Below the pieces are notes generated by a model. That model did no database searches. It was not told the DNA's origin and saw only the letters and a program-made list of their open reading frames with translations. Of a stretch of 17,969 bases of DNA, positions 839 through 17,072 are shown in pieces. The DNA is taken from assembly GCA_963663405.2 (NCBI GenBank), contig CAXXSM010000015.1, forward strand, positions 1 through 17,969, given 5' to 3'. How positions within the stretch are numbered: position 1 is the stretch's first letter; each line of letters begins with the position of its first letter. Source of the stretch: a bacterium. GTDB lineage: Bacteria > Hinthialibacterota > Hinthialibacteria > Hinthialibacterales > Hinthialibacteraceae. Both the position numbers and the translations under genes were made by a program.

Positions 839-3718
839 TTACTTGACGGTCCAACGGATCGTGAAAAGCGGCTCACTTTTCGTACGCTGCCGCATACGTT
901 TTTCAAGCGCATCGATCAGCGAGTCACGCTTCTCCATAATTTCATCCTCCACATCGAAGATCCGCTGCCGCTGACGGCGCTTCTTCTTTTCAAGATCCTT
1001 GATCTTGTCCTGAAGCTGGTGTTGTTCTTCAACGGTCGTCGCCTGCCGCGCCTGGCGATTGAGCGCTTTGATTTGTTCTTTGGTGTCGCGGAGTTCCTTT
1101 TCAGCGGCTAAAACCATGTCATCGGCCCACTTTTCAAGCTGCTCACGGGCCTCATTAAAATGATGGTTGTTTCGCTCGAGAGATTTGCTAATCGCCGCCT
1201 TGGCATGACGCTCAGAATCCGCCGCAATACGCTGCTTTTCAAACTCCGGTATATCTAAAACATCAAGCGTTTGCCCATCACAATTGAAGAGTTTCTCACA
1301 CGTTTCTTGATCGAGCGATCGCCCGTCGTCATCAAATCCTGAGAATAGAAGATACTCCTCCCGTTCAAACGAATCAACGAGAAGCCGCTGCAGGATCAGC
1401 CAACCAGATTTTTCCTTCAAATCCTCGATCATCGAGATTCTCGCCGGATGACCAGAGATATCGAAATTTACCTTCGTCACAGGCGTAGGATAGTCTTTCC
1501 CGGCTTGGATGACGAATTCACCGAGAGGATGCCCGAGACGGTAGAGGAACTCACCAGATACATTCTTTCGATCTTTCGAAATCATGTGGTACGTTCCTGA
1601 GTGGACGGATGGTAATGGTGGATTGTTTAGGTGAAAGGAAAGCGCCCGATCGTCAAACGAAGCTTTGTCATCCAGGATAAAACGTGTTAAGGTCCAGAAC
1701 ATGCGGCCTACGCGGTCAAGTTGTTCCTGTGCGCCGGTGAGATTAAAGCGAAGACGCGCATGTACATCCTCGTCAAAGTGTTCAAGAAGGATTTGCCTCG
1801 TCTCCTGTATCCGTGTCGTAATGGTTTCATCCAGTTCTTTACGTAAAGCCTCGAACGCGTTCTCGATCTCCTCCGGTGTCCGGCATAGCTGATAGATATC
1901 CAAGATGCGGCGCTCGAAGTCAATCCCAGATTCAATGCTGCCGAGAACCTCATCTGACGCGCCGAATAGGCCCGTGAATAGATTGAATTTCTCTTTAAGA
2001 AGTTCATACACACGCTGATCGGCGGCGTTGCGTTCGTTCAGAAAATTGATGACGACTACATCATGCTTCTGACCGTATCGATGACAACGTCCGATACGCT
2101 GCTCAATACGTTGCGGATTCCATGGCAAATCAAAGTTAATCACAAGCGAGCAAAATTGTAGATTGATTCCCTCGGCGGCCGCTTCCGTAGCGATCATGAT
2201 GCTTGCATTGTCGCGGAAATATTCGATAATGGCCATACGGGCGTCGATCGGCCGCGAGCCGGAAACTCTCCCGCTTTCCTTATTGACTTCCAACCATTGT
2301 TCGTAGATTCGTGTAGTTTCTGGTTCTCGGTTAGATCCATTAAATGTCACGACTCGGCTGGTGTAACCATTGGATTCAAGAAAATCCCTTAAAAACTGCT
2401 GTGTCCGCCGTGACTCAGTAAAAATGACTGCTTTTTGAGGAGCGCTTGTTTCCTCCATTTTGTCGAAACCGATCTCCAATGCCTTGAGAAGAGATCGCGT
2501 CTTTGTATCGATCCCGATACTGCGAGCCCAATTGATATATCTCTTTAGTTCCTCAATCTCTGACTCCAGTTTCTGCTTGTCGATCTTAACTATCTCTTCT
2601 TCCGCCGCGATGGAACCGGCATCCGATCTTTCATTCTCACCATTTAAGATTTCATCCAGCAGTTCATCTTCGATTTCCTCATCTTCAATAATCCGCTCAG
2701 CCAGCGTTGCGTCCATCTTCGCTTGATCGCGCATGGCAATGAGCCGGTCTCGCATGACCTCAAGGGTTCCGGCCAGCGCCTGAGAGGAAGACGCTAAAAG
2801 TTTGCGCACAATTAGCGCTGTTAGATGCCGTTGCTGATAAGGAAGAGAATATGTTCCATCACGTTTCAGGAATTCGGATACGGCCTCATAAAGTTTTTGT
2901 TCACGATCGGTTGGTTTAAACGGACGAGTAATTAGCCTGCGCTCTGTGTATTGGATGTATTCTGCGACTTGGCCCCGGAGAGTACGCAAACAGAAAGACT
3001 CAAGCCTGCTGCGAAGTTCTTGGAGATTACCACCGACATTGATGTATTGGGTTCGATATGACGGGAGATCACCAAAGATATGTTCATCAATTATGGTAGA
3101 AAGACCATACAACTCTAGAAGGGAATTTTGCATAGGCGTTGCTGTGAGAAGTACTTTACGACGATCTTCTAACGCCCAGCGGATGTTTTGCCCCATTCGA
3201 TTGCTTTGCCGGTATGCATTGCGTAATTTGTGCGCTTCATCGATCACAACAAGATTCCACTGGATCGGTTTGATTTCAGCCACCCGGCTACTGGCAAAAT
3301 GAAGCGAACAAATGACTATTCGCTCGTTCATGAAGGGATTTGGATTCCCACACCGAATCTGCTCTTTGTAAGTTTTCGTATCAAGAATCAGAGTTGGCAG
3401 ATGAAATTTCTCTTCAAGTTCAAGCGCCCATTGTTTACGTAATGACGCAGGGCAAATGACAAGGATTCGTCTATGACGTTCTGCCCAGCTTTGACAGATC
3501 GTCAAACCTGCTTCAATGGTTTTTCCTAGTCCAACTTCGTCAGCAAGAAGAACGCCTTTCGATATAGGAGATCGCAACGCGAAAAGCGCAGCCTCGATCT
3601 GGTGAGGATTTAAATCAACGCAGGCATCAAAAAGGGATCGGGATAAACGATCTACCCCAACACCACCTTGACGAGTCAATTCATGAGCAAAAAACCTTAC
3701 ATGGTAAGGAGTAGTCAT
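839..3718 (-). CDS. SNF2-family (SF2) helicase/ATPase with C-terminal coiled coil, R-M associated
   Basis: 959 aa. Walker A LADEVGLGKT, DEAH box, LLTATP (motif III), ATEAAAEGINLQ, DLPWNP and QRIGRCHRYGQ (motif VI). E/K/Q/R-rich helical C-terminus. Confidence 0.93.
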   Translation of the reverse strand: MTTPYHVRFFAHELTRQGGVGVDRLSRSLFDACVDLNPHQIEAALFALRSPISKGVLLADEVGLGKTIEAGLTICQSWAERHRRILVICPASLRKQWALELEEKFHLPTLILDTKTYKEQIRCGNPNPFMNERIVICSLHFASSRVAEIKPIQWNLVVIDEAHKLRNAYRQSNRMGQNIRWALEDRRKVLLTATPMQNSLLELYGLSTIIDEHIFGDLPSYRTQYINVGGNLQELRSRLESFCLRTLRGQVAEYIQYTERRLITRPFKPTDREQKLYEAVSEFLKRDGTYSLPYQQRHLTALIVRKLLASSSQALAGTLEVMRDRLIAMRDQAKMDATLAERIIEDEEIEDELLDEILNGENERSDAGSIAAEEEIVKIDKQKLESEIEELKRYINWARSIGIDTKTRSLLKALEIGFDKMEETSAPQKAVIFTESRRTQQFLRDFLESNGYTSRVVTFNGSNREPETTRIYEQWLEVNKESGRVSGSRPIDARMAIIEYFRDNASIMIATEAAAEGINLQFCSLVINFDLPWNPQRIEQRIGRCHRYGQKHDVVVINFLNERNAADQRVYELLKEKFNLFTGLFGASDEVLGSIESGIDFERRILDIYQLCRTPEEIENAFEALRKELDETITTRIQETRQILLEHFDEDVHARLRFNLTGAQEQLDRVGRMFWTLTRFILDDKASFDDRALSFHLNNPPLPSVHSGTYHMISKDRKNVSGEFLYRLGHPLGEFVIQAGKDYPTPVTKVNFDISGHPARISMIEDLKEKSGWLILQRLLVDSFEREEYLLFSGFDDDGRSLDQETCEKLFNCDGQTLDVLDIPEFEKQRIAADSERHAKAAISKSLERNNHHFNEAREQLEKWADDMVLAAEKELRDTKEQIKALNRQARQATTVEEQHQLQDKIKDLEKKKRRQRQRIFDVEDEIMEKRDSLIDALEKRMRQRTKSEPLFTIRWTVK

Positions 3719-3903: not shown

Positions 3904-4097
3904 GATCATTATGGAAATTGGGGTATCAATCCGTAAAACAAAAAATCTCTTACAGAATTTTGTCTCTCCGGGAGTTTTGATCGGTTGAAATGAAAATGAT
4001 TAATAGAAAAGTCGAAATAGAATGATCATTCTGTGTAGAATCAAATTCGTAATATTACATCTCATTCTTCAATACCAATGATACCTATAATTATATA

Positions 4098-4110
4098 AAT
4101 CAATAACTTA
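4098..4110 (+). promoter_or_regulatory. IHF consensus site
   Basis: AATCAATAACTTA is an exact match to WATCAANNNNTTR, in an AT-rich context. Confidence 0.45.
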
Positions 4111-4310
4111 TACAAAATAAACACAATTACCCTGTAGCTTTTTGTAGCTCCAAACCGGAATATTTTTCCCCCAAGAATAGCCTTTGACTGATGAATAGCG
4201 AAAATGATAAAATGATGTCTGTCCAAAGGATGATAGTGTAATCCGAAGCTTTACGAAGCTTTTCTAAGGCAATTTTTTCCGCAAAAAAAAAGACCCTGTC
4301 AGAACGTCGA

Positions 4311-4420
4311 CCCGCCCCCGGGCCTCCCATTTTCCCCCCATACCCCCTGTTTGGTCTGGGACCCGGAGCGGAATTGGTCGCTCGAAATTTCGCGGCTCCG
4401 GGAGCGGGTGTGGGGGGGAA
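4311..4420. repeat. GC-rich nested inverted repeat / G-tract element
   Basis: Outer arms TTCCCCCCATACCC (4332-4345) and GGGTGTGGGGGGGAA (4406-4420). Inner arms CCCGGAGC (4362-4369) and GCTCCGGG (4395-4402). Palindrome CGAAATTTCG (4383-4392). Five G-runs of 3 or more on the minus strand at 4311-4347. Confidence 0.7.
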
Positions 4421-4489
4421 CGTCCTCTTTTGGAGATTCTACAAACCTTACAGTTACTGCATTTTTCATTTTCTACTATTCAAGTGATC

Positions 4490-4678
4490 TTATTCACTAT
4501 CCGAATACTTATAGACATTCAAACCTAGTCGGATAGAATTATTTTTTGGTACAGCGACATTCCCAGACGTAGTTGCAACTATGTGTGTCTTCCCAGATTT
4601 GGATGGTCCATAATCCTGTGTGAGATCGATCTCGATGAGTAACTTATTTTCTTTGTTTTCAAGCGTCACGTTTTTCAT
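4490..4678 (-). CDS. Small conserved hypothetical protein (GPSKSGKT...GLNVYK type)
   Basis: 62 aa, starts 1 nt after the dnaB stop. The pattern IDLTQDYGPSKSGKTHIVATTSGN...LGLNVYK resembles a small uncharacterised beta-rich family I recall from phage and prokaryote genomes. Confidence 0.75.
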   Translation of the reverse strand: MKNVTLENKENKLLIEIDLTQDYGPSKSGKTHIVATTSGNVAVPKNNSIRLGLNVYKYSDSE

Positions 4679-4679
4679 C

Positions 4680-6029
4680 TCAGAATGGCTCCTTTTCGCT
4701 TTCTGTTAGCGGTATAAACCGCGTTAATTTCTTCTGAAAATACAGTTCTACCTGTCCAATCGGTCCATGCCGATTCTTCGCGATGATAATCTCACGTATC
4801 CCAGATTCTTCTTTTAATTCGTCGTCTGGAGTATGTATGAAAATTACTTGATCCGCATCCTGTTCAATGGCTCCTGAATCCCGCAGATCGGATAAGCGGG
4901 GCTTTGCGTTTCCACTATTACTGCCGCGTTTTTCAATGTCTCTGGACAACTGGCTGAGTGTAAGAATCGGACAGTTCAATTCCTTCGCGAGGAGTTTTAA
5001 CCGACTTGATATCTCAGTCACGGCTTCATAGCGTTTCTGCGTTTGATTGATTCTGATTAATTGGAGATAGTCTATGACAATCAAATCTAAATCGTGAACA
5101 AGAGCCATGTATTTGGCCCGTGATTCGATCTTCTCAATTGGCAAAGGCGAATCATCGATATATAAATTCCAGCCTTCTGCGAGTTTTCCAGAATTAAGAA
5201 GTTTCGTTCTTTTTTGTCTGTCGAGGGCTTCCCTAATATTTATTTCCGCCACATTTGAGAGTACTCGTTCCGTCAATTCGAGTTTAGACATTTCCAACGA
5301 AAAGAAACCAACATGGTTACCTGATCGCGTTGCGTTCACGGCAATTTGCAGACCAAGGCTTGTCTTCCCTTCAGACGGTCGTGCCGCAAGAATAATCTGT
5401 CTGCCACGACCGAGACCGCCAGTTATCCGGTCGAGATCAGTCAAGCCAGTTGATATACCATCACAAGCGATCCGACCAGTTTGAATCCGCTCGCTTCGTT
5501 GGTTTATGCTGTCGAGCGCTTCAGGCAGTGTATCTGAGATCAGTTTCAAACCACCAGAACCGTCAATACGTTTGAATATTGTATGTAATTTGCTCTGAAG
5601 ATCGGAAATAACCTCTTCCGCTGAATCTGCTTCAGAGGCTTGTTTTTTGGTCTCTTCACACAAGCGGACAATTGCACGGCGGTTAGCGTGTTCCAATACA
5701 TATTTAGCAAAATACTCTACGTTCGCTGATGTTGCGACTGTCTGAGCGAGTTCAATCAAATAGTAAGGTCCACCGATTTTGTCTAGATTTCCCATCCTCT
5801 TGAGGATGTCGGCCAATGCCATAATGGTAATTTCTTGCCGATTGGCTGCCATATCGCAGAGCGTGAGAAATATGGTTCCATGTTTAGGCTCGTAGAAATC
5901 GTTGATTTGCAGAATCGCTTTTGCGCGCAGAATCGCTTCATCGTCAGAAAAACCATCGCGATTTTGCCGGAGGCACGATCCCAATAATTTCTTTTCTGCA
6001 TCGATATTATAAGGTATCTGGCTAGACAT
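4680..6029 (-). CDS. dnaB: Replicative DNA helicase (element-encoded)
   Basis: 449 aa. N-terminal PYNIDAEKKLLG...DFYEPKH, Walker A AARPSEGKT, FFSLEMS, VIDYLQL, LSQLSR, PRLSDLRDSGAIEQDAD and IIAKNRHGPIG. Confidence 0.96.
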   Translation of the reverse strand: MSSQIPYNIDAEKKLLGSCLRQNRDGFSDDEAILRAKAILQINDFYEPKHGTIFLTLCDMAANRQEITIMALADILKRMGNLDKIGGPYYLIELAQTVATSANVEYFAKYVLEHANRRAIVRLCEETKKQASEADSAEEVISDLQSKLHTIFKRIDGSGGLKLISDTLPEALDSINQRSERIQTGRIACDGISTGLTDLDRITGGLGRGRQIILAARPSEGKTSLGLQIAVNATRSGNHVGFFSLEMSKLELTERVLSNVAEINIREALDRQKRTKLLNSGKLAEGWNLYIDDSPLPIEKIESRAKYMALVHDLDLIVIDYLQLIRINQTQKRYEAVTEISSRLKLLAKELNCPILTLSQLSRDIEKRGSNSGNAKPRLSDLRDSGAIEQDADQVIFIHTPDDELKEESGIREIIIAKNRHGPIGQVELYFQKKLTRFIPLTESEKEPF

Positions 6030-7089
6030 TGATCGTTACTCCTCTTTCCCTCGCGAGAGCTTTGTATTCAGCGACTAAATCAACAATGGAACCATCCAGA
6101 ATTTCTTTTGACTGGAATTGTATTTTCTTCAACCGACAATGGATTGGTTTTAGGTCCTCACGGTTTTTTATAAAATCTCTTTGTTTTTCAACTTCACCAG
6201 TGCGCATGATTTTCACTCGATCTGTGAGTTCTTCGATAATCCATTTACGAGTTTGTTCTGCCTTAGTCCTCATAATTTTGAGTGGTGTCCATCCTTTCCG
6301 CGCATTCATCCATCCCGCCCTTTCTTCTCCATTCCATGCTCTATCTTCAAGCCACGTAGAAAACAATGGGATAAACTTCTTCTCTTCAGAATCATCAATC
6401 CGACTTTGAACGTATGGGCATGCCGCGTATTCTTTGATGGCGGTTAGAAGTTCTTCAAATGAAATCTCTTTCGACTGAATCAATCCTTCACATTTTTTCA
6501 TCCCTCGTCGTTTTTTTTCCTTCCTAGGATAGTAATTCCAAAGTTCTTCGAATTTATCTTCGAAGTCACCTGTTTTCTTCGCTGTAGTTTTTCGCTTTGT
6601 TTCTGTTTCAGAATCACAGGCGCCCTTATTGGAATGTTGTTCTATTGGATATTTCTTGGACTGGTGGCGATTTTTCGCCAGTCTTTCTACAGCTTTTTGC
6701 CGGTCTTTTACAATTTGGCTGGCGATTTTTCGCCGCTCTTTACCTCTCACAGATTGGCAGTTTTCTTCCGGTCTTTCGTCGAAAGGTTGTGGTTGCATAT
6801 TCAGCATGAAAGCGCAACAATGTGGGCCACGTCTGTATTGTTTTTTGATTAACTCGTGGCTTTTAAGCATTGAAATATGTTCACGGATTGATCGTTCAGA
6901 TGATTTCGTATTTTTCGCTATTGTCGACTCAAGCAATCGACAATAACCATTCTGATTCGCATTCAAACGCATCTCCGTATATGTAATGACTGCGCCTTTA
7001 GGTATAGGATAAGAAAAGAGATTCCTCCAAACTTCTCGTGGCATCCAGAGGAATTGCTCTCTTTTTTTTAGTGGTTCTATACTACTCAT
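6022..7089 (-). CDS. Phage-type replication initiator / replisome organiser
   Basis: 355 aa. N-terminal winged-HTH-like segment (ESTIAKNTKSSERSIREHISML). Motifs FEELWNYYPRK and FIPLFSTWL typical of phage initiators. Overlaps dnaB by 8 bp and contains internal DNA repeats. Confidence 0.8.
   Translation of the reverse strand: MSSIEPLKKREQFLWMPREVWRNLFSYPIPKGAVITYTEMRLNANQNGYCRLLESTIAKNTKSSERSIREHISMLKSHELIKKQYRRGPHCCAFMLNMQPQPFDERPEENCQSVRGKERRKIASQIVKDRQKAVERLAKNRHQSKKYPIEQHSNKGACDSETETKRKTTAKKTGDFEDKFEELWNYYPRKEKKRRGMKKCEGLIQSKEISFEELLTAIKEYAACPYVQSRIDDSEEKKFIPLFSTWLEDRAWNGEERAGWMNARKGWTPLKIMRTKAEQTRKWIIEELTDRVKIMRTGEVEKQRDFIKNREDLKPIHCRLKKIQFQSKEILDGSIVDLVAEYKALARERGVTINV
6665..6776. repeat. 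Four 22-bp iteron-like repeats (putative replication origin)
   Basis: TGGCGATTTTTCGCCAGTCTTT (6665), CTACAGCTTTTTGCCGGTCTTT (6687), TGGCGATTTTTCGCCGCTCTTT (6720), TGGCAGTTTTCTTCCGGTCTTT (6755), in the linker after the initiator's HTH. Confidence 0.75.
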
Positions 7090-7178
7090 TTTAAATCACT
7101 CATAATTTCTTCATGCGGATCAGAATGAGATCTTTTTGAATCGAAAAACTAAGCACATCTTTAATAGGAGAATGGGAT

Positions 7179-7379
7179 TCACCGTTCCAAAAAGATCAAG
7201 CCTTCATTGAGAATGACCTCGCGCTTAAATCGCCATACGCGGCCAAATCGTCGCCCACAATTGGGGGCAATCTCACCAGCAGCGCAACGTCGTTTTAGTG
7301 TAGACAGACTCAATTGGGTTATTTCGCAGACTTGCTTCATATCAAGCCAATATGGTAATACGGCTTCTTGCGGTTCCAT
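7179..7379 (-). CDS. Excisionase/AlpA-like HTH DNA-binding protein
   Basis: 66 aa, WLDMKQVCEITQLSLSTLKRRCAAGEI...RRFGRVWRF (HTH_17/MerR-like pattern). AGGAGA RBS at 7385-7390. Confidence 0.85.
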   Translation of the reverse strand: MEPQEAVLPYWLDMKQVCEITQLSLSTLKRRCAAGEIAPNCGRRFGRVWRFKREVILNEGLIFLER

Positions 7380-7424
7380 ACGAATCTCCTAAGACGATTA
7401 AAATTCTTTGTGGAATCACAACTC

Positions 7425-7440
7425 TGCAGAAAGCATGCCA
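7425..7440 (-). promoter_or_regulatory. Sigma54 (-24/-12) promoter for the xis-rep-dnaB operon
   Basis: Minus strand TGGCATGCTTTCTGCA, exact GG-N10-GC spacing (consensus TGGCAC-N5-TTGCW), preceded by TTT. Predicted start near 7414, about 35 nt before the xis ATG. Adjacent to a bEBP gene. Confidence 0.8.
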
Positions 7441-7469
7441 AAAGCGCATAATCCATATAAGTTATATAT

Positions 7470-7482
7470 ATTCAATATGTTA
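7470..7482 (+). promoter_or_regulatory. IHF-like site between enhancer and sigma54 promoter
   Basis: ATTCAATATGTTA, one mismatch to WATCAANNNNTTR, in an AT-rich tract at about -56 to -68. Confidence 0.5.
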
Positions 7483-7495
7483 TGAGATTTTTTTA

Positions 7496-7560
7496 TTAAG
7501 TGGAGTAATAGGTGGAGTTTTGTTTTTTTAAGTGGAGCAAGAACCATTTAAGTGGAGTAA
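7496..7560. promoter_or_regulatory. Four direct repeats TA(A/G)GTGGAG, candidate upstream activator sequences
   Basis: GTGGAG cores at 7500, 7512, 7532 and 7552 (spacing 12, 20, 20): TAAGTGGAGTAA, TAGGTGGAGTTT, TAAGTGGAGCAA, TAAGTGGAGTAA. Located about -85 to -145 from the predicted start. Confidence 0.65.
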
Positions 7561-9588
7561 TTAACTCGGATACTGGAGAGGAGAAATTTTATGCTCTATC
7601 GCGTAATCATAGAAAGACTTTGGTGTGATCTTTGTTTTGGTTTCTTCCCATTCTGCTTGAGCCGCTTTGTGACAATCTCCTTCATTATCTTTGAGTAACC
7701 TTTCTCTCCTTTTCTTCATTTCTTCATCTGTCTTTCTTCCTTTCTTCCTCACTGGAGAATTGGTGTCACTAGAATTATTCAATAAAAGAAAAGCAATATA
7801 GGTATCCATGGCAGAAGGAAAGTGGTTTTCTGTATAGTCAATTAACATGCAATCGTCCCATTCATACATAAGGGATCTTTTCCGTTCAAGAATCATGCGA
7901 TTCTCGTCTTCATTAAACCGTTTTTGGTCCTGCGTAGTTAAATCGTTCAGTTGCTGATCGCATACTTCCATTTCTTTGATAATTTCATAAATCCTCTTTT
8001 TATTCTCTTCAAGTACATCTGGATATATTTTGATAATATCTTGTGGTGTGATAATAAGTGGCGTATCTGATTCACCAGTTTCAAATATAATATATGTCGC
8101 TAATCGGCTGACTAGATTCCTCATTTCCCGAATGTTACCTTTGCTGAAAGGAAATGACGAAAACATTGATAACGCGGTTGGTTCAATTTTGATTGAATAA
8201 TCGTCCATCAATTTCTTTGCTAGGATCATTCGATCGTTTTCCCGTTTCCGGAGTGGTGGAACATTGATTTCATTTCTAAGACCCAATCGCCATAGCAAAT
8301 CAGGTATCACTCTTTTTTGTAACTTATTCACTGAAAGGTTTGAAGCGGCAATGATAGTCGCTTGGGTTGTCTCACAATCCTCTGGATCGGATCCAAGTTT
8401 ATTAAATCTGTTATCTTCGACGACTCGTAATAACATGGCTTGTATGTTTTTATCTAAATGATGAAATTCATCAAGGAATACTACATTATCTTTTGCGGTT
8501 TCAAATAATCCCCTTCTATCTTTTTCAGCGCCGGTGAAAGCACCCTTTGTGTGACCAAAAAGTTCGGAATAGCCAAGGTTGTCAGGAATGCTGGCGCAAT
8601 TGATTGAATGTACTTTTTTGCCAATAAGTGTTCCAATCGCTTTACAGACGAGTTCTTTTCCGGTTCCGCTTTCACCTAAGACCAATAAATGTCTGTTGCT
8701 GTACAGAGATGAAACCTTTGTTTTCTTACTAACCTTTTGGAGTCTTGCCGCATGAGCATTGATCACTTTCATCAGATCCAGAAGCAAACCACTATTACCA
8801 TCCCATTTTTTAAAAGCCCCTTTTGATTTCCTTTTAAGATTTATAATTTCATCATTATCATTGACAGATTTTTCTGCTGTTTCAATTATCTTTAAAGTCA
8901 GTGACTGCCATTGGCTATACGTTTTTCGATCATTATCATCTATACAATGCCATCTTATCGCTTGCTGATTCGCATCTCGTAAAATGGTAAGAATCGGATC
9001 TAATTTTTCAAATTCACCAACTCTTATATAGATCTCCGCTAGCCAGTCATTCAGTGTCCAATATACTTCTTGAAAACGCTGTTGAAGCGTTATTTTTGAA
9101 TTCTTATAGTGTTTTAGTATTTGTTTACTCTTTTGAGAGAGTAAAGTAAATTCAATTAATATTTGTAGCAAATCAATGAATTCCGATGGAATATAATTCC
9201 ATTTCCCTTTTGTCCAGGGAGACATTTTGGTTGGATCATCTTTTTGCAGATCACTGACTAACTTGCTTACTGGATATTCGACCTTATCATCCAATAGGGG
9301 GAAGAATTGATTAGTACGACTCATATCATACAGACAATCCACGAGTAACTTTGAAAATCCTCCATCGGGCAAGTATTTCAAATAAAGTGATTCAACATAG
9401 TGTCTTTCTAATTTCAAATTTCCTAACGCTTGGATAAAATTCTTCTCTATCCAATCTTCGAATTTCTCAAGTTCTTTTTGATCACCAATTCTTTCACTTA
9501 ATAGCGTATAATTTTGCTGGTCTTTAATAGAGTCTTTTGAGAGTTTGAGAATTGTTTTTTTTTGTTTTGCCATCGCACCGATCCTCAA
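7561..9588 (-). CDS. Sigma54-dependent enhancer-binding protein (AAA+) with unrecognised N-terminal domain
   Basis: Walker A GESGTGKE, NCASIP...SELFGHTKGAFTGA, Walker B VFLDE, QAMLLRVVE, DLLWRL and sensor II GNIREMRN. C-terminal Fis-like HTH variant (LLKDNEGDCHKAA...ITPKSFY). Probable start ATG 9573 with GAGGA RBS, directly after the integrase stop. Confidence 0.92.
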   Translation of the reverse strand: MRIGAMAKQKKTILKLSKDSIKDQQNYTLLSERIGDQKELEKFEDWIEKNFIQALGNLKLERHYVESLYLKYLPDGGFSKLLVDCLYDMSRTNQFFPLLDDKVEYPVSKLVSDLQKDDPTKMSPWTKGKWNYIPSEFIDLLQILIEFTLLSQKSKQILKHYKNSKITLQQRFQEVYWTLNDWLAEIYIRVGEFEKLDPILTILRDANQQAIRWHCIDDNDRKTYSQWQSLTLKIIETAEKSVNDNDEIINLKRKSKGAFKKWDGNSGLLLDLMKVINAHAARLQKVSKKTKVSSLYSNRHLLVLGESGTGKELVCKAIGTLIGKKVHSINCASIPDNLGYSELFGHTKGAFTGAEKDRRGLFETAKDNVVFLDEFHHLDKNIQAMLLRVVEDNRFNKLGSDPEDCETTQATIIAASNLSVNKLQKRVIPDLLWRLGLRNEINVPPLRKRENDRMILAKKLMDDYSIKIEPTALSMFSSFPFSKGNIREMRNLVSRLATYIIFETGESDTPLIITPQDIIKIYPDVLEENKKRIYEIIKEMEVCDQQLNDLTTQDQKRFNEDENRMILERKRSLMYEWDDCMLIDYTENHFPSAMDTYIAFLLLNNSSDTNSPVRKKGRKTDEEMKKRRERLLKDNEGDCHKAAQAEWEETKTKITPKSFYDYAIEHKISPLQYPS

Positions 9589-10701
9589 TCCTTACTAGAC
9601 AAATTGGATATACTTTCTATCGCTCGCCGCTTCTGGTCTTCCAGTGATGTTAAATAACGCATCGTTGTTGTGATTGTGCTGTGTCCAAGAAGTTGTTGGA
9701 CGGTTCGGATATCGGCGCCTCGTCTCAACATGCGGGAGGCAGCCGTATGTCGAAGGTCATGAAATTTGAATCGTTCTATCTTTGCCGCTTTTAATAATCT
9801 GGGAAAGTCCTTGATAACAGTAATGGGTTTTGATGGATCTCTTAATAATGGAAATAAATAACCAGATTCTTTTTTATTCATTTTGAGTTCTTCGAGTAGA
9901 ATGGTTGGGATAGGAACTTTCCGCCTACGGCTTTTCGTATCCTGCAAATCAAAAATGTTGTTTTCTAAATCCACATAGTTAATACGTTTCCCACTCGTCC
10001 AATTCCATTGAAGGGTAAATATCTCTCCCCGCCGCATCCCTGTATATAACGCAATTAATACGATCAGCCGAATCCGGTCAAACCGCTTATCTTCCAAGGC
10101 AGAGAGTAAATCGCTCCACTTCATCTTCATTCAGTATCCTTTCACGATGCTCAGTCTCTTTCAAGAACTTGAATCCACACATGGGATTCTTGATGATCTT
10201 TTCCGTCTGCAGCCCCCAATTGAGAAGACGCCTTAATTCAGAGAGTTCCCGGTTGATTGTCGATGGAGAAACTGGTTTCTTTGTTTTTTCTGTCAGAGAA
10301 GAGAGTCGCTCTTTGACATATTGACCGAGTCGTTCGTGAGTGATACTTTCCACTGTAGGAAATCGTTCAAGAAAACGGCTCATAAGCTTGGTGTGGTTAC
10401 GAATACGATTTATATCCCACTGGCTCTCGAAAGCTTCCCGATAACTACACTCGAGTTTTGTCAGATTCGTGAGTTTATCATTGTCATATCCATTGAGTCC
10501 GATTTTACCGCCGGTTGATATTTCAGCGGCGAGGACGGCGGCGATTTTTTCCGCGTGAGTTTTGGTGGTAGGTCGTTCATTGGTAATCGGATCACGCAGA
10601 GATCGCATAATCATTTTCCCGCCGGGTTTCTTAATCCGTAAATACCAATACCGGCCACGCTTGAATAAACACCCAGTTCCTGCTGTTCGACGTGTTTTCA
10701 T
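9585..10701 (-). CDS. Tyrosine recombinase/phage integrase, split by one +1 frameshift near 10109
   Basis: N-terminal arm-binding-like MKTRRTAGTGCLFKRGRYWY and core-binding SPSTINRELSELRRLL. Removing one T from CGATTTACTC joins ERILNEDEVER to LLSALED...YTGMRRGEI...KS...FHDLRHTAAS...LLGHSTITTTMRY, giving the full R-K-H-R-H-Y set. ATG 10701 with GAGG RBS. Confidence 0.92.
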
Positions 10702-10722
10702 CCTATGCCTCACTGATGACAG

Positions 10723-10777
10723 AAGTGATTACTCCAGAGAATCACTTTATTGTACCAGAAGGTACTTGGTTATACAA
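10723..10777 (-). promoter_or_regulatory. Sigma70 promoter of the int-bEBP operon with a downstream operator-like palindrome
   Basis: Minus strand TTGTAT (10777-10772), 17 bp, TACAAT (10754-10749) with extended TGn. Inverted repeat AAGTGATT-9 bp-AATCACTT at 10723-10747 covers the predicted start. Confidence 0.6.
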
Positions 10778-11164
10778 GAAAACACTAAAAATTTTTCCTG
10801 TAAATTACAGATATAGATATTCTTATAATCAATAAAAACAGTATGATACGTATATGTCACTGAGATAATTAGAGATATGGAAGAGTGATCATTAATGAGG
10901 AGATATAATTAGTACACGGATGCAAAAGCCTTGTTCTTGCTGAGTCAACGTTTGATACACTCCAGAATTAGACATTCAATTGAATTGCGAGATGATAATT
11001 CAAAAAGCTATCATACCAGCCCAATGCGTGGACAATATGAGTCTTTTCGCAATCATCGGAATTGATACATGAATTGCGTCTATAGAGGTTCAGTTTAAGA
11101 GTATTTATTGAAAAAAAATCATATGATATAACATGAATAAGTCAAGCGATTAGTAATACTCCCA

Positions 11165-11187
11165 TTCGATTCCTGCTTGACAGCACC
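11165..11187 (+). other. Possible tRNA 3'-end remnant (candidate att site)
   Basis: TTCGATTCCTGCTTGACAGCACC looks like T-loop, T-stem 3' strand, acceptor 3' strand and ACC, with no 5' half. It is one nt longer than a standard 7-bp acceptor. About 460 bp upstream of int, near the composition shift. Confidence 0.35.
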
Positions 11188-11341
11188 GCACATTTCTTCC
11201 CCGTTTACACTTGATTTGCTGAAGGGAAATCGTAAGTGGCTCATTTTGTATAACTTTACTTTTTCGATTTCTTAAAAATGACCTTCGCGTATAGAAGATG
11301 AATAAAACTGAAATTCATCGTATGTTTTCTATCTGTATCAG

Positions 11342-14194: not shown

Positions 14195-14580
14195 TCAGCC
14201 CGCTCAGTTCAACAATTCAGTGTAACAAGCTATGATTCGAAGACGCAGGATATTACCTTCAACGTTTTCAGTTTGAGTCCTAACTAATGGAATCTTTTTT
14301 TTAGAGCGTACTATACCTTGCAAATTCTCCCACCTCATTACCTTACTCTATGACCACAATGAACCGTTGGATTTCTATAAGGGTTTGTAAATTAAATAGT
14401 TGCGGCAGCGAATTTCCTTGTAATCAAGTATAGGTTTCAAAAATTTTCGTTTTCGTTCTGTCAAAATCCCAATAAATTCAATATCTTCCCCAAAAAAAGG
14501 CTATTTTATACGCGCATAAAATGATAAAGTATAAGTATTAGATAACCATAAAAACAGATACTTTATCGAACCGGTGAAAA

Positions 14581-15265
14581 ATGACTCCCCAACCAACACA
14601 CGATCGAAGATAAAACCCTTCAAGTTTTTCGGAAGAAAAAAGTATTGAGAATCGGCCAACTCGCCCGGCTTCTCGAACGGTCTATCCCGACTGCGCGCCG
14701 GCGGCTGAAAGAGTGGAAAACCTATACGAGTTATAACCACAACGGAAAATATTATGTGCTGCCTGACGTGCCCAAGTTTGACGCCAATGGATTATGGCAG
14801 TACGACTCGATCCGCTTCTCTCAACATGGCACGCTGAAAGAGACGGTGATCCATCTTGTGAAGAATTCGGACAGGGGGCTTTTCGCTCAAGAGATCGGCC
14901 GTCTTGTGGGGTTGGCGCCGCATTCATTCTTGTCTCATTTTCGAGGCGCGTCCGGCTTACAACGAGAACGGTTCAACGGACGATGGATTTATTTTTCCTC
15001 GGAGGAGACGATCTTGAACGTACAAAAACGGGAAAGAGAACGGTGGGCGCAAACCCAATCCACTTCGCTCCTCACAGATGCGGAAGCCGTTCAACTCCTG
15101 GTGGAAAGGATTCGACATCCCCACCTCAGTTTAGACGATCTGAGCCAGGCGCTTCATACCAAGGGGATGGCCATCTCGTCCGAATCGATTCGCCGTTTTC
15201 TCGGCCAGCACGGCCTACTAAAAAAACAACGGATACGCTCTCGTTCGACACCTGAGAACATATAA
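14581..15265 (+). CDS. IS OrfA, HTH-type DNA-binding accessory protein or transposase N-terminus
   Basis: HTH-like IGQLARLLERSIPTARRRL, then TSYNHNGKYY...GLWQY...FSQHGTLKET and a second HTH-like C-terminus. The frame is open from 14585; ATG 14581 joins it if one base of the C4 run is removed. Confidence 0.7.
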
Positions 15266-17072
15266 GAATCAATTGCTGACCAACCTTTCGGCCGCCACGT
15301 GTTTCCCGTCTCCTCCCACCCTTGTGTTTCGGCCGTCTCATCGCGTTTGTTCTTGCGGCGCGAAACTGAAAGTGCAAAAAACACACAGGAGGACTCTTGT
15401 CACCTTGGATATTGGGGAATGGCACGCGAAAGAAATCCTTTACTATTGCGATGGCTGCGGCGATCCAACGATCCATTCTTCGGAAGAGTTACAAACGCTG
15501 GCGCCCCCTCGATGTAAGTTCGGCTATGATATTTTGGTCGAGGTAGGAACCGCGTGGTTTCTCCGGCGCCGGAGTGAAACCAGTATTCAAGAAGAACTCG
15601 CCCGGAAACACATCCGGATTTCCAAGAGCGAAATCGAGTATCTCGCCCAAAAATTTATCATTTATCTGGCCGTTGTCCATCGAGAAAACGGTTCCAAAAT
15701 CAAAGAAGATATGGCGTTGCGGGGAGGCTATATTCTCCAATTGGATGGAACGTGTGAAGGGGAAAGCCCTCATTTAATGAGTGTCTTGGATGGCCTTTCC
15801 GAAATTGTTTTGGACAACGTAAAAATTCCCTCGGAAAACGCGGAACAAATCATTCCGTTTCTCTCCCGGATTAAAGAGACGTACGGTCTCCCTCAAGCGT
15901 TGGTGAGTGATATGGGAAAAGGGATTGGATTGGCCATCCAAAAAGTGTTCCCGCTCGTCCCTGCTTTCCTCTGTCATTTCCATTTTTTGCGCGATCTCGG
16001 AAACGATCTGTTCGGAATCGAAAACGATATTATTCGGACTCATTTGAAGAAGTACGGCCTGCAAAGTTTGTTGGGTAAATTGGTGAAAGAACTGAAGCCA
16101 ATTATGAAGGCCGATCCAACCGGCATTGATTCCCTCGTCACGTGTATCGAAAGCCAAAACGGGGACGAAGAAACGGCGCCGGAATTCCTGCCCGCTGTCT
16201 ATGCGTTAATTCTCTGGGGATTGGGCGCCAAACACCAAGGAGACGGCTTGGGATTTCCGTTCGATCGCCCCCATCTTGTTTTTTATCAACGGCTGGCCAT
16301 CCTGCGCTCTACCTTCACAAAAATTCAGCCGGCTCCACCCATTGACCGTCCATTGTATCAACAACTCATTTGTACATTGCAGAAGGTCATGGACGATCCG
16401 ATTCTCCACTATACCGCCTCCCAAATGCAGCAAAAGGTTCTTGTGTTCGATCGGCTGCGGAGAGCCATGCGCATCACTCTCCCCGGGAAGAAACAAGGCC
16501 TCAATGATGAGGGAGAAGATACCGATATCCGGACCATCGAAAAGGGGGTGACTGAGTTCCGCGAATGGCTCTGCGGTGATCCCACTCTTTCAGCGGATGC
16601 CGATGTACAAAAGATGATCGCGCAACTCGATAAATATTGGGAGAAACTCTTTGCCGATCCCATTGTGGTTGATACGCCGAATGGGAAAGTCACCATCCAA
16701 CCGCAAAGGACAAACAATCTGCTGGAACGCTTCTTTCGGAATTTAAAACACAGCCATTGCAAAAAAAACGGGAACGAGTTCGATGAAGAAGGTGTTAACG
16801 ACTATGCTTCCGGATACGCCTCTCGTGAAAAACCTTGAAAATCGACATTATATGGAGATGATCTTGAAGGGAAGAGCCAGCCTGGAAGAACGATTTGCTG
16901 AAATTGATTCGAACACCATTCGCGAAGAAATGAAAAAAGCCAAGATTCAGAACGAAGGAATTCCACGAAAATTAAAAAAAATCATCACCAAACACGATTT
17001 CCCTGGAATCTTGATTGAAGTGCTTTTCATAAAGACGGAATTATTAAATCCAACCGTTTGTTGGGGTCATAG
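15222..17072 (+). CDS. DDE transposase (RNase H fold, CxxH type), frameshifted at A8 16761-16768
   Basis: Zn-ribbon-like CSC...CDGC. Catalytic candidates LQLDGT, LVSDMG and RTNNLLERFFR. LCHFH (CxxH). Removing one A joins HCKK to TGTSSMKKVLTTMLPDTPLVKNLEN. Exact start and stop are uncertain; a TAG falls at the last 3 nt of the right TIR. Confidence 0.88.

Follow-up and report, generated by a model that had tools for sequence, protein, structure and literature searches.

A mobile genetic element in a bacterium of the phylum Hinthialibacterota appears to place its excision and replication genes under a sigma-54 promoter that would be opened by an activator of its own. The element resides in a window of 17,969 bp, which is the complete contig CAXXSM010000015.1 of GenBank assembly GCA_963663405.2 (8.44 Mb in 170 contigs, 82% complete); it is called C15 below, after the contig label G000:C15. 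All of its genes are on the minus strand, in the order integrase (int), bacterial enhancer-binding protein (bEBP), a 180-nt intergenic region, excisionase-like regulator (xis), replication initiator (rep), DnaB-type helicase (dnaB) and an open reading frame (ORF) of 62 amino acids (orf62). Based on sequence comparison, we assign a probability of roughly 0.7 to the reading that xis, rep and dnaB form an excision and replication operon gated by sigma-54 and the element's bEBP. The features involved are listed here by window coordinate.

9585-10713, minus strand: tyrosine integrase gene, present as two overlapping ORFs (10713-10087 and 10130-9585); the second ORF matches Phage_integrase (1e-27), and the PHROG integrase match is at 4.6e-42.
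7561-9588, minus strand: bEBP gene, 675 amino acids; Sigma54_activat match at 9.2e-37, GAFTGA motif present.
7496-7558, minus strand: four direct upstream boxes RCTCCACYTAW, a putative enhancer (upstream activating sequence), with start-to-start spacings of 20, 20 and 12 nt.
7470-7482, plus strand: site resembling that of integration host factor (IHF), with one mismatch to WATCAANNNNTTR, centred near -62, in AT-rich sequence that separates the boxes from the promoter.
7425-7440, minus strand: sigma-54 -24/-12 box TGGCATGCTTTCTGCA, an exact GG-N10-GC element with a predicted +1 near 7414.
7179-7379, minus strand: xis, encoding an AlpA/Xis-family HTH_17 protein of 66 amino acids (HTH_17, 1e-07; PHROG excisionase, 8e-05).
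6022-7089, minus strand: rep, encoding a winged-helix replication initiator (lambda O / DnaD-like) of 355 amino acids (PHROG replication initiation protein, 3e-20; weak HTH_36 match).
6665-6776, no strand assigned: three to four iteron-like direct repeats of 19-22 nt within rep, a putative origin.
4680-6029, minus strand: gene for a DnaB-type replicative helicase (DnaB_C, 3.5e-77; DnaB, 3.6e-22).
4490-4678, minus strand: orf62, conserved, with copies of 53-82% identity in C47, C6 and C100, which are introduced below.

Central to this reading is the intergenic region between the bEBP gene and xis (7560-7380). A first-pass annotation of the same DNA had proposed an exact GG-N10-GC box at this location, and TGGCATGCTTTCTGCA at 7440-7425 agrees with that proposal, with GG at 7439/7438, GC at 7427/7426 and the xis ATG located 45 nt past the box. 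The two doublets lie 10 nt apart in a TGGCAY-N5-YTGCW context, and TGGC-N7-NTGCN has no other match in the window, whichever strand is read. Across the genome, TGGCA-N6-YTGCW is found 29 times, and TGGNAY-N5-YTGCW has 116 matches in 16.9 Mb of single-strand sequence, which corresponds to about 0.0014 expected matches per 200-nt single-strand region. Four repeated boxes had likewise been placed at -85 to -145. They were located at 7558-7548, 7538-7528, 7518-7508 and 7506-7496, with centres at approximately -139, -119, -99 and -87. The pattern ACTCCACYTAW is exact in three of them (0.04 expected; none of 200 shuffled sequences reached three), and the fourth, recovered with the more degenerate RCTCCACYTAW, carries one mismatch to it. 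The promoter scan of this region was negative for sigma-70-like sites on the minus strand, and a ribosome-binding site (AGGAG) precedes the xis ATG by about 7 nt.

The other genes are consistent with the same organization. The order xis, rep, dnaB and small ORF had been read from the sequence beforehand, and it was borne out by Pfam and PHROG matches and by the minus-strand ORFs. In 10 small or flanking ORFs, Pfam identified no domain, and specifically neither a repressor nor a helix-turn-helix (HTH) domain; the lack of a visible repressor-type HTH agrees with the earlier observation that a CI- or Stl-like repressor is missing from view.

Paralogous elements were identified in the same genome by tblastn searches with the proteins of C15, and two of these, C47 and C6, permit the intergenic regions to be compared. 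Relative to C15, the C47 element exhibits identities of 93-97% for the integrase, 71% for the bEBP, 59% for Xis, 34% for Rep, 67% for DnaB and 53% for the orf62 product. The bEBP gene of C6 is cut by the contig end, and its Xis and orf62 proteins are 68% and 60% identical to those of C15. The C47 box, TGGCATACAACCTGCT, lies 41 nt before the xis ATG, and the C6 box, TGGCATACTTTCTGCT, lies 45 nt before it. In C6, a P4-alpha-like Toprim/D5 primase-helicase takes the place of Rep and DnaB.

Representatives outside this genome are rare. When a profile of the activator family was used to search 35 genomes of the phylum, family-level scores were obtained only in the host genome (G000) and in two others, G010 and G018; all other matches were ordinary bEBPs with E values of 1e-67 or weaker. 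The G018 locus is a 1,980-bp contig from another family of the same order, and it carries in succession the bEBP C-terminus, two 22-nt direct repeats, the box TGGTATAACCTTTGCA, a xis homolog 48 nt farther on, and rep. A metagenome scan with a Xis alignment returned two loci, one (L126) near-identical to G018 and therefore not independent of it, and the other a match of 13 residues. G010 encodes a family member of 576 amino acids, which is followed after about 850 nt by TGGAACGTTACTTGCT and, some 95 nt later, by a primase-polymerase gene. This primase-polymerase is of the NrS-1 type, and its gene shares one strand with genes for a family-A DNA polymerase and an integrase that also lie behind the box. 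G010 is the weakest of the five loci.

A -24/-12 box is thus found in five of the five family loci (C15, C47, C6, G018 and G010), three of which are paralogs in one genome. Conservation of the box before xis in related loci had been suggested as a check, and the box is retained in C47, C6 and G018, where it keeps its position 41-48 nt before xis while the surrounding sequence has diverged. When the four xis-type regions are aligned, invariant columns fall mostly within TTGG.AT......TGC, and the rest averages 63% identity.

The upstream boxes vary together with the activator. Each of the three paralogs carries four boxes, spaced by 20/20/12 nt in C15, 46/20/12 in C47 and 18/22/12 in C6. C15 and C47 have the box ACTCCACYTAW in common and also an identical C-terminal stretch in their activators (KITPKSFYDYA). 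The boxes of C6 (ATCTACAWAAT) and the corresponding protein stretch (EIKAKTIRAYM) are both unlike those of C15 and C47. Boxes of the C15/C47 type occur at 25 sites in the 8.4-Mb genome, of which four are at C15, four are at C47 and 17 are scattered, with no other cluster. A box sequence that tracks the activator C-terminus has the look that would be expected of a co-evolving pair of activator and enhancer. Gene content, motifs, conservation and co-variation are established by these comparisons, and the comparative data (the box in four further loci, boxes that co-vary with the C-terminus and the lack of a repressor-like ORF) lend support to the original proposal that the bEBP drives xis, rep and dnaB from a sigma-54 promoter.

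The activator had been described as a GAFTGA-containing bEBP, and its translation fits that description. The match to PF00158 scores 126.7 bits (curated cut-off, 20.2 bits), and translations and alignments reveal Walker A (GESGTGKE), Walker B (VVFLDEF), GHTKGAFTGA and sensor II (GNIREMRN) motifs. The protein consists of an orphan helical N-terminal domain (approximately residues 1-280), a sigma-54 AAA+ core and a putative DNA-binding domain of three helices at the C-terminus. An AlphaFold2 model built from a five-sequence alignment assigns confidence values (pLDDT) of 85-93 to the core and values below 50 to residues 1-159; the C-terminal helices (617-629, 634-645 and 651-660) are predicted at pLDDT 81-87. 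Foldseek groups the core with FleQ, NtrC1, FlrC, LuxO and PspF (E values of 3e-15 to 4e-12), and the PHROG family phrog_7998, whose function is unassigned, matches the AAA+ core at 3.6e-27.

The N-terminal domain sets this protein apart. In an index of 5.8 billion proteins, queried once with the entire protein and once with a profile of its N-terminal part, the only relatives of the N-terminal 280 residues were two proteins of the same genome. With the whole protein as query, every match among the best 120 of 488 covers at most 46% of the query, except the genome's own P0001 and P0002. The ESM Atlas yielded no usable match to the N-terminal domain. An exhaustive search of representative sequences gave 108,091 matches, of which the best 150 were listed and 28 of these inspected; among the inspected matches, only P0126 (558 amino acids, aligned over 168-522) and the fragment P0141 are similar outside the AAA+ core, and the remaining high scorers contain two AAA+ domains. 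P0126 was not found in viral contigs. Judging from these searches, the N-terminal 280 residues are without relatives outside a small group of bEBPs, whose members exhibit the signatures AF..W.G.S before Walker A, FLDE[FIL]HH, ASNL, VPP.R.R..D and PSA...Y.A..L. A profile search of genome contigs with the family alignment returned 80 loci that were ordinary bEBPs related through the AAA+ core only, and it was uninformative.

The replication module contains a candidate origin. Iteron-like repeats lie 310-450 nt from the start of rep, with three to four copies in C15, four copies in C47 and five in G018, and with sequences that differ in every case (further coordinates are 7100-7211 in locus L009 and 1608-1716 in locus L098). 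The orf62 product has no match in Pfam or PHROG. On contig C100 (approximately 19000-23500, locus L011), a prophage-like region encodes a protein with 31% identity to the Rep N-terminus and a 62-amino-acid protein with 82% identity to that of the window element. No sigma-54 box was found before rep in this region, and a terminase-small-subunit-like ORF, read by eye, follows.

We infer binding, sigma-54 dependence, the signal and excision from the sequence, and the mechanism that would join them has two transcription units. The first, int and the bEBP gene, would be expressed from an ordinary promoter. The second, composed of xis (AlpA), rep, dnaB and orf62, would be transcribed from the sigma-54 promoter at 7440-7425, with a start site near 7414, and this promoter would remain closed until the element's own bEBP opens it. 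The C-terminal HTH of the activator is predicted to bind the four direct boxes at -139 to -87, and the protein would form an AAA+ ring that contacts the sigma-54 holoenzyme over a bendable, AT-rich, IHF-like spacer. ATP and the GAFTGA loop would then serve to open the promoter. The orphan N-terminal domain of 280 residues presumably restrains the ATPase until a signal arrives. On activation, the excision cofactor or activator, the initiator and the helicase would be produced together, and transcription would cross the iterons inside rep. The activator would therefore occupy the place that a CI- or Stl-type repressor has in prophages and phage-inducible chromosomal islands (PICIs).

The coupling of the first unit is visible in the sequence. 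The int stop codon and the bEBP start overlap by 4 nt, or the two genes are 12 nt apart if the ATG at 9573 is the true start. The sigma-70 promoter that had been placed in front of this pair was not recovered, as the promoter scan of the window yielded no minus-strand match upstream of int. Promoter-like matches were overall at chance (20 found, 18.6 expected), and a weaker candidate, TTGATT-17-TGTAAT around 10832-10804, was seen by eye only.

The points that count against a sigma-54-gated operon concern the host, the activator, the intergenic region, the number of loci and the state of the integrase. The host had been expected to carry rpoN and ihfAB. No rpoN gene was found in the 82%-complete assembly with PF04552, PF04963 and TIGR02395, and nine genes of the HU/IHF family are present. 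Because the assembly is incomplete, 20 of 20 relatives carry rpoN and the genome contains 36 matches to PF00158 (Sigma54_activat), corresponding to about 30 bEBP genes, it is unlikely that the organism itself lacks rpoN. On this evidence from genome sequences, the host lineage appears to use sigma-54.

With regard to the activator, no Pfam HTH family matches its C-terminus; the aligned C-terminus of the G018 homolog reaches 21 bits for the Fis-type HTH_8, below the 22-bit cut-off. The upstream boxes are direct repeats, and classical bEBP sites are usually inverted repeats. The IHF-like site stands where it had been predicted, near -60 (at -62). By itself the site is not significant, since IHF matches of such quality occur at chance in the window (36 found, 28 expected), and so it counts only by its position; the aligned site of C6 is a perfect match, and those of C47 and G018 are weak. 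The number of loci is small, and some are related to one another: three are paralogs in one genome, and L126 is near-identical to G018. Furthermore, the G010 activator lacks the C-terminal domain, and just a two-copy repeat of 9 nt lies upstream of its box.

Two alternatives bear on the intergenic region itself. The stretch from the bEBP gene to xis revealed no intrinsic terminator, and read-through from the int-bEBP unit could thus express xis without sigma-54. On this view, transcription of xis, rep and dnaB would depend chiefly on read-through or on a housekeeping promoter that escaped recognition, and the sigma-54 box and the bEBP would merely modulate expression, or the bEBP would have its targets elsewhere. 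The sigma-70 scan is weak evidence against such a housekeeping promoter because the promoter consensus of the host's phylum is not established. Nevertheless, no island of the intergenic alignment is better conserved than the -24/-12 box, which is also found in distant members; the box clusters are restricted to these loci, and bEBP genes commonly adjoin their target promoters. We judge this alternative improbable. The four boxes might instead be sites for Rep, Int or Xis that serve an origin or recombination, with a fortuitous GG-N10-GC beside them, and their arrangement as direct repeats does resemble that of iterons and arm-type sites. However, separate iterons lie within rep in all three elements of the rep type, the element ends at which attP would form are more than 3 kb distant, the box sequence follows the bEBP C-terminus, and the -24/-12 box is conserved in all of the family loci examined. 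That C6 retains the same box architecture with a D5-type primase-helicase instead of Rep argues specifically against Rep sites. Overall, this assignment of the boxes is most improbable.

A different concern is that the circuit once worked and that the element is now a decaying remnant, with a broken integrase and an operon no longer used for excision or replication. The integrase gene is split in the window by a 1-nt frameshift, caused by a single extra base near 10105-10108. In C47, whose integrase gene is 91% identical at the nucleotide level, the reading frame is also disrupted by one indel, at a different position and within a run of A. As the integrases of both copies are frameshifted, the element may be decaying. 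In addition, no direct repeats of attachment (att) sites were found, and no joint spanning the element was seen in the contigs of four sequencing runs, although contigs cannot show that such joints are absent. Against this, the bEBP, xis, rep, dnaB and orf62 ORFs are all intact, and X3, a set of contigs from another study with about 99% identity over 9982-10160, has one base fewer at 10108. The likely source run has a word depth of only about 2.8, and ordinary bEBP genes are split or carry stop codons in contigs C64, C160, C140 and C121; the low depth and the several split bEBP genes suggest that single-base indel errors occur in the assembly. Given the foreign contigs without the extra base, the low depth and the other split genes, assembly error is as likely as decay, and we consider it unlikely that the element is a remnant. 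An operon gated by sigma-54 and the bEBP remains the preferred explanation.

The limits of the element were estimated by comparison with C47, and two further features result.

3965-10997, no strand assigned: approximate extent of the integrative element, about 7.0 kb, defined by the ends of blastn similarity to the paralog C47.
3965-4322, no strand assigned: conserved non-coding end segment, which matches the far end of the C47 element at 91.3% identity.

The blastn matches to C47 cover 9542-10997 at 90.7% identity and 3965-4322 at 91.3%, and the similarity ends at 10867 and 24004 in C47, where the element is 13.1 kb long. The GC content of 4490-10777 is 40.1%, compared with 46.6-46.7% in both flanks and 46.9% genome-wide. 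No transfer RNA or Rfam family was found within the window, no att direct repeat of at least 11 nt was detected at the element ends, and the two ends have no common 11-mers in either C15 or C47. A piece at 4285-4429, which adjoins or overlaps the end segment, is 82% identical to C6. No protein domain was found in the small ORFs of the end segment, which might serve as an att site, an oriT or an RNA, and a G-rich tract follows it at 4330-4420.

The surroundings were also inspected. Just outside the integrase-side end, positions 11013-11200 belong to a short dispersed repeat (73-82% identity) that occurs in at least 10 other contigs of the genome and might have been the insertion target. A 2.7-kb repeat at 14348-17072 is 99.4-99.7% identical to copies in C21, C112 and C151 (two copies); it contains ORFs at 14645-15265 and 15273-16838 and is probably an active insertion sequence. 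On the other side, the element is adjoined by a gene for a SNF2-family helicase of 959 amino acids (839-3718, minus strand), beyond which lies an open 275-amino-acid ORF (1-825) without any Pfam domain; the two may be cargo of the element or genes of the host.

The element had been called satellite-like, and its gene content does not sustain that name. An integrase (frameshifted in the assembly), an AlpA-type regulator and a replication module of its own are present, a combination that PICI- and P4-like satellites also have. C47 and C6, which are longer, additionally encode an AAA ATPase, an ArdC-like antirestriction protein, a single-stranded DNA-binding protein (C6) and a second integrase. 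Neither Pfam nor PHROGs revealed genes for hijacking helper packaging or capsid assembly in the window element or in these longer versions, and no capsid, packaging or relaxase gene was recognised in the latter, with several small ORFs left without an assignment. The term 'satellite' accordingly denotes a likeness in gene order only. Neither an intact integrase nor flanking att repeats, the features expected of integrative elements with a tyrosine recombinase, was found in this assembly, and the frameshift is possibly an assembly error.

Sequences from viruses hint at a broader use of this arrangement. A scan of IMG/VR with the family alignment identified 75 loci with bEBP-like genes, which are related to the family through the core only (28-48% identity). 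Matches to TGGNAY-N5-YTGCW within 1.5 kb of these genes number 45, versus about four expected, and farther from the bEBP genes in the same loci there are 12 matches versus 6.6 expected. The matches are concentrated near short activators. For bEBP ORFs of at most 330 amino acids, a same-strand box lies between -20 and +1100 nt of the stop codon in 40 of 44 cases, 39 of them within 270 nt, compared with two of 31 for longer ORFs. Clustering of 40 of the 75 loci at 60% identity yields ten groups, two of them large (14 and 16 loci), and the number of independent viral cases is consequently far below 40. In locus L180, for example, the bEBP gene (5884-6657) is followed by a box at 6660 and then by genes for an exonuclease, a Sak4-like protein and a DNA polymerase; in L145, the bEBP gene spans 5863-6636 and the box lies at 6719. 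Among 50,697 GenBank phage records, neither the window bEBP nor a viral short bEBP retrieved a relative above 60% identity, and many of the matched records appear, from their ordinary-regulator annotations, to be bacterial sequence filed as phage.

Taken together, these loci raise the tentative proposal, to which we give somewhat less than even odds, that several kinds of mobile elements, small integrative ones in the present case and many uncultivated phages in IMG/VR, carry their own sigma-54 activator and a sigma-54 promoter before a replication (and excision) module. Such elements would use host sigma-54 as a leak-proof, ATP-gated on-switch that requires no repressor, and in the integrative family the N-terminal domain, acting as a sensor, would set the time of departure from the chromosome. 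Basal activity is essentially nil at sigma-54 promoters, where formation of the open complex needs ATP hydrolysis by the activator. If the reading of C15 is correct, excision and replication could therefore be silenced very tightly without a repressor, and the input perceived by the activator's sensor domain would govern activation of the element. Descriptions of sigma-54 regulons usually centre on host functions such as nitrogen metabolism, flagella, stress responses and the cell exterior, and the viral contigs that carry short activators suggest a wider use of sigma-54 by mobile elements than is evident from the literature found. To our knowledge, almost all that is understood about the decision switches of prophages, satellites and integrative elements concerns repressor circuits. 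A full-text search, whose coverage excludes subscription journals and supplementary files, found no published description of a mobile element with excision or replication genes under its own bEBP and a sigma-54 promoter. If confirmed, the arrangement would represent a regulatory design for mobile elements, assembled from known parts, of which no description was found in the literature searched. The comparative data offer components for experimental tests, namely the four boxes, the -24/-12 box and a specificity pair (the C15/C47 type versus the C6 type).

The closest parallels to the promoter region are the classical chromosomal systems NifA-nifH, NtrC-glnAp2 and PspF-pspA. In common with these, the window unit has an AAA+ core with GAFTGA, putative activator sites approximately 80-150 nt upstream, an AT-rich IHF-like spacer, a GG-N10-GC element and an activator gene beside the target operon. 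It differs from them in residing on a mobile element and in facing excision and replication genes, and its bEBP differs in having an N-terminal domain of 280 residues without relatives, a divergent C-terminal HTH (predicted) and four direct-repeat sites. The IMG/VR loci (L145-L202) resemble it in that an activator gene directly precedes a consensus -24/-12 box on the same strand, which in L180 precedes replication and recombination genes. Their proteins, unlike the window bEBP, are PspF-like, span about 250-310 amino acids and lack a DNA-binding or sensor domain.

The nearest find in the literature is Htm (Gp204) of the T4-like phage Mosigvirus AV110, which in a 2026 preprint is described as structurally bEBP-like and is proposed to act on sigma-54 RNA polymerase (bioRxiv 10.64898/2026.10.06.757011). 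Both are bEBP-like AAA+ proteins encoded by mobile elements, with sigma-54 RNA polymerase as the proposed target. According to the same preprint, Htm is without a GAFTGA loop and a DNA-binding domain and acts broadly on host genes (bioRxiv 10.64898/2026.10.06.757011), whereas the window bEBP has GAFTGA, a predicted C-terminal HTH and a putative cognate promoter within the element.

Gram-negative PICIs and P4-like satellites exhibit a comparable succession of integrase, small AlpA-family HTH protein and replication module, and C6 extends the likeness with its P4-alpha-like Toprim/D5 primase-helicase. They are distinguished from the window element by packaging, capsid-size, helper-interference and repressor genes, none of which was found in it, and by the control that a sigma-54 activator is predicted to exert here. 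The replication module itself parallels those of lambdoid phages, in which an O-type initiator carries the origin within its own gene and, in P22, is accompanied by a DnaB-type helicase: the window element likewise encodes a winged-helix initiator, with three to five iterons located 310-450 nt into the gene among its relatives, followed by a helicase. Transcription into this origin would start at a sigma-54 promoter, and not at a repressor-controlled pR as in the lambdoid modules.

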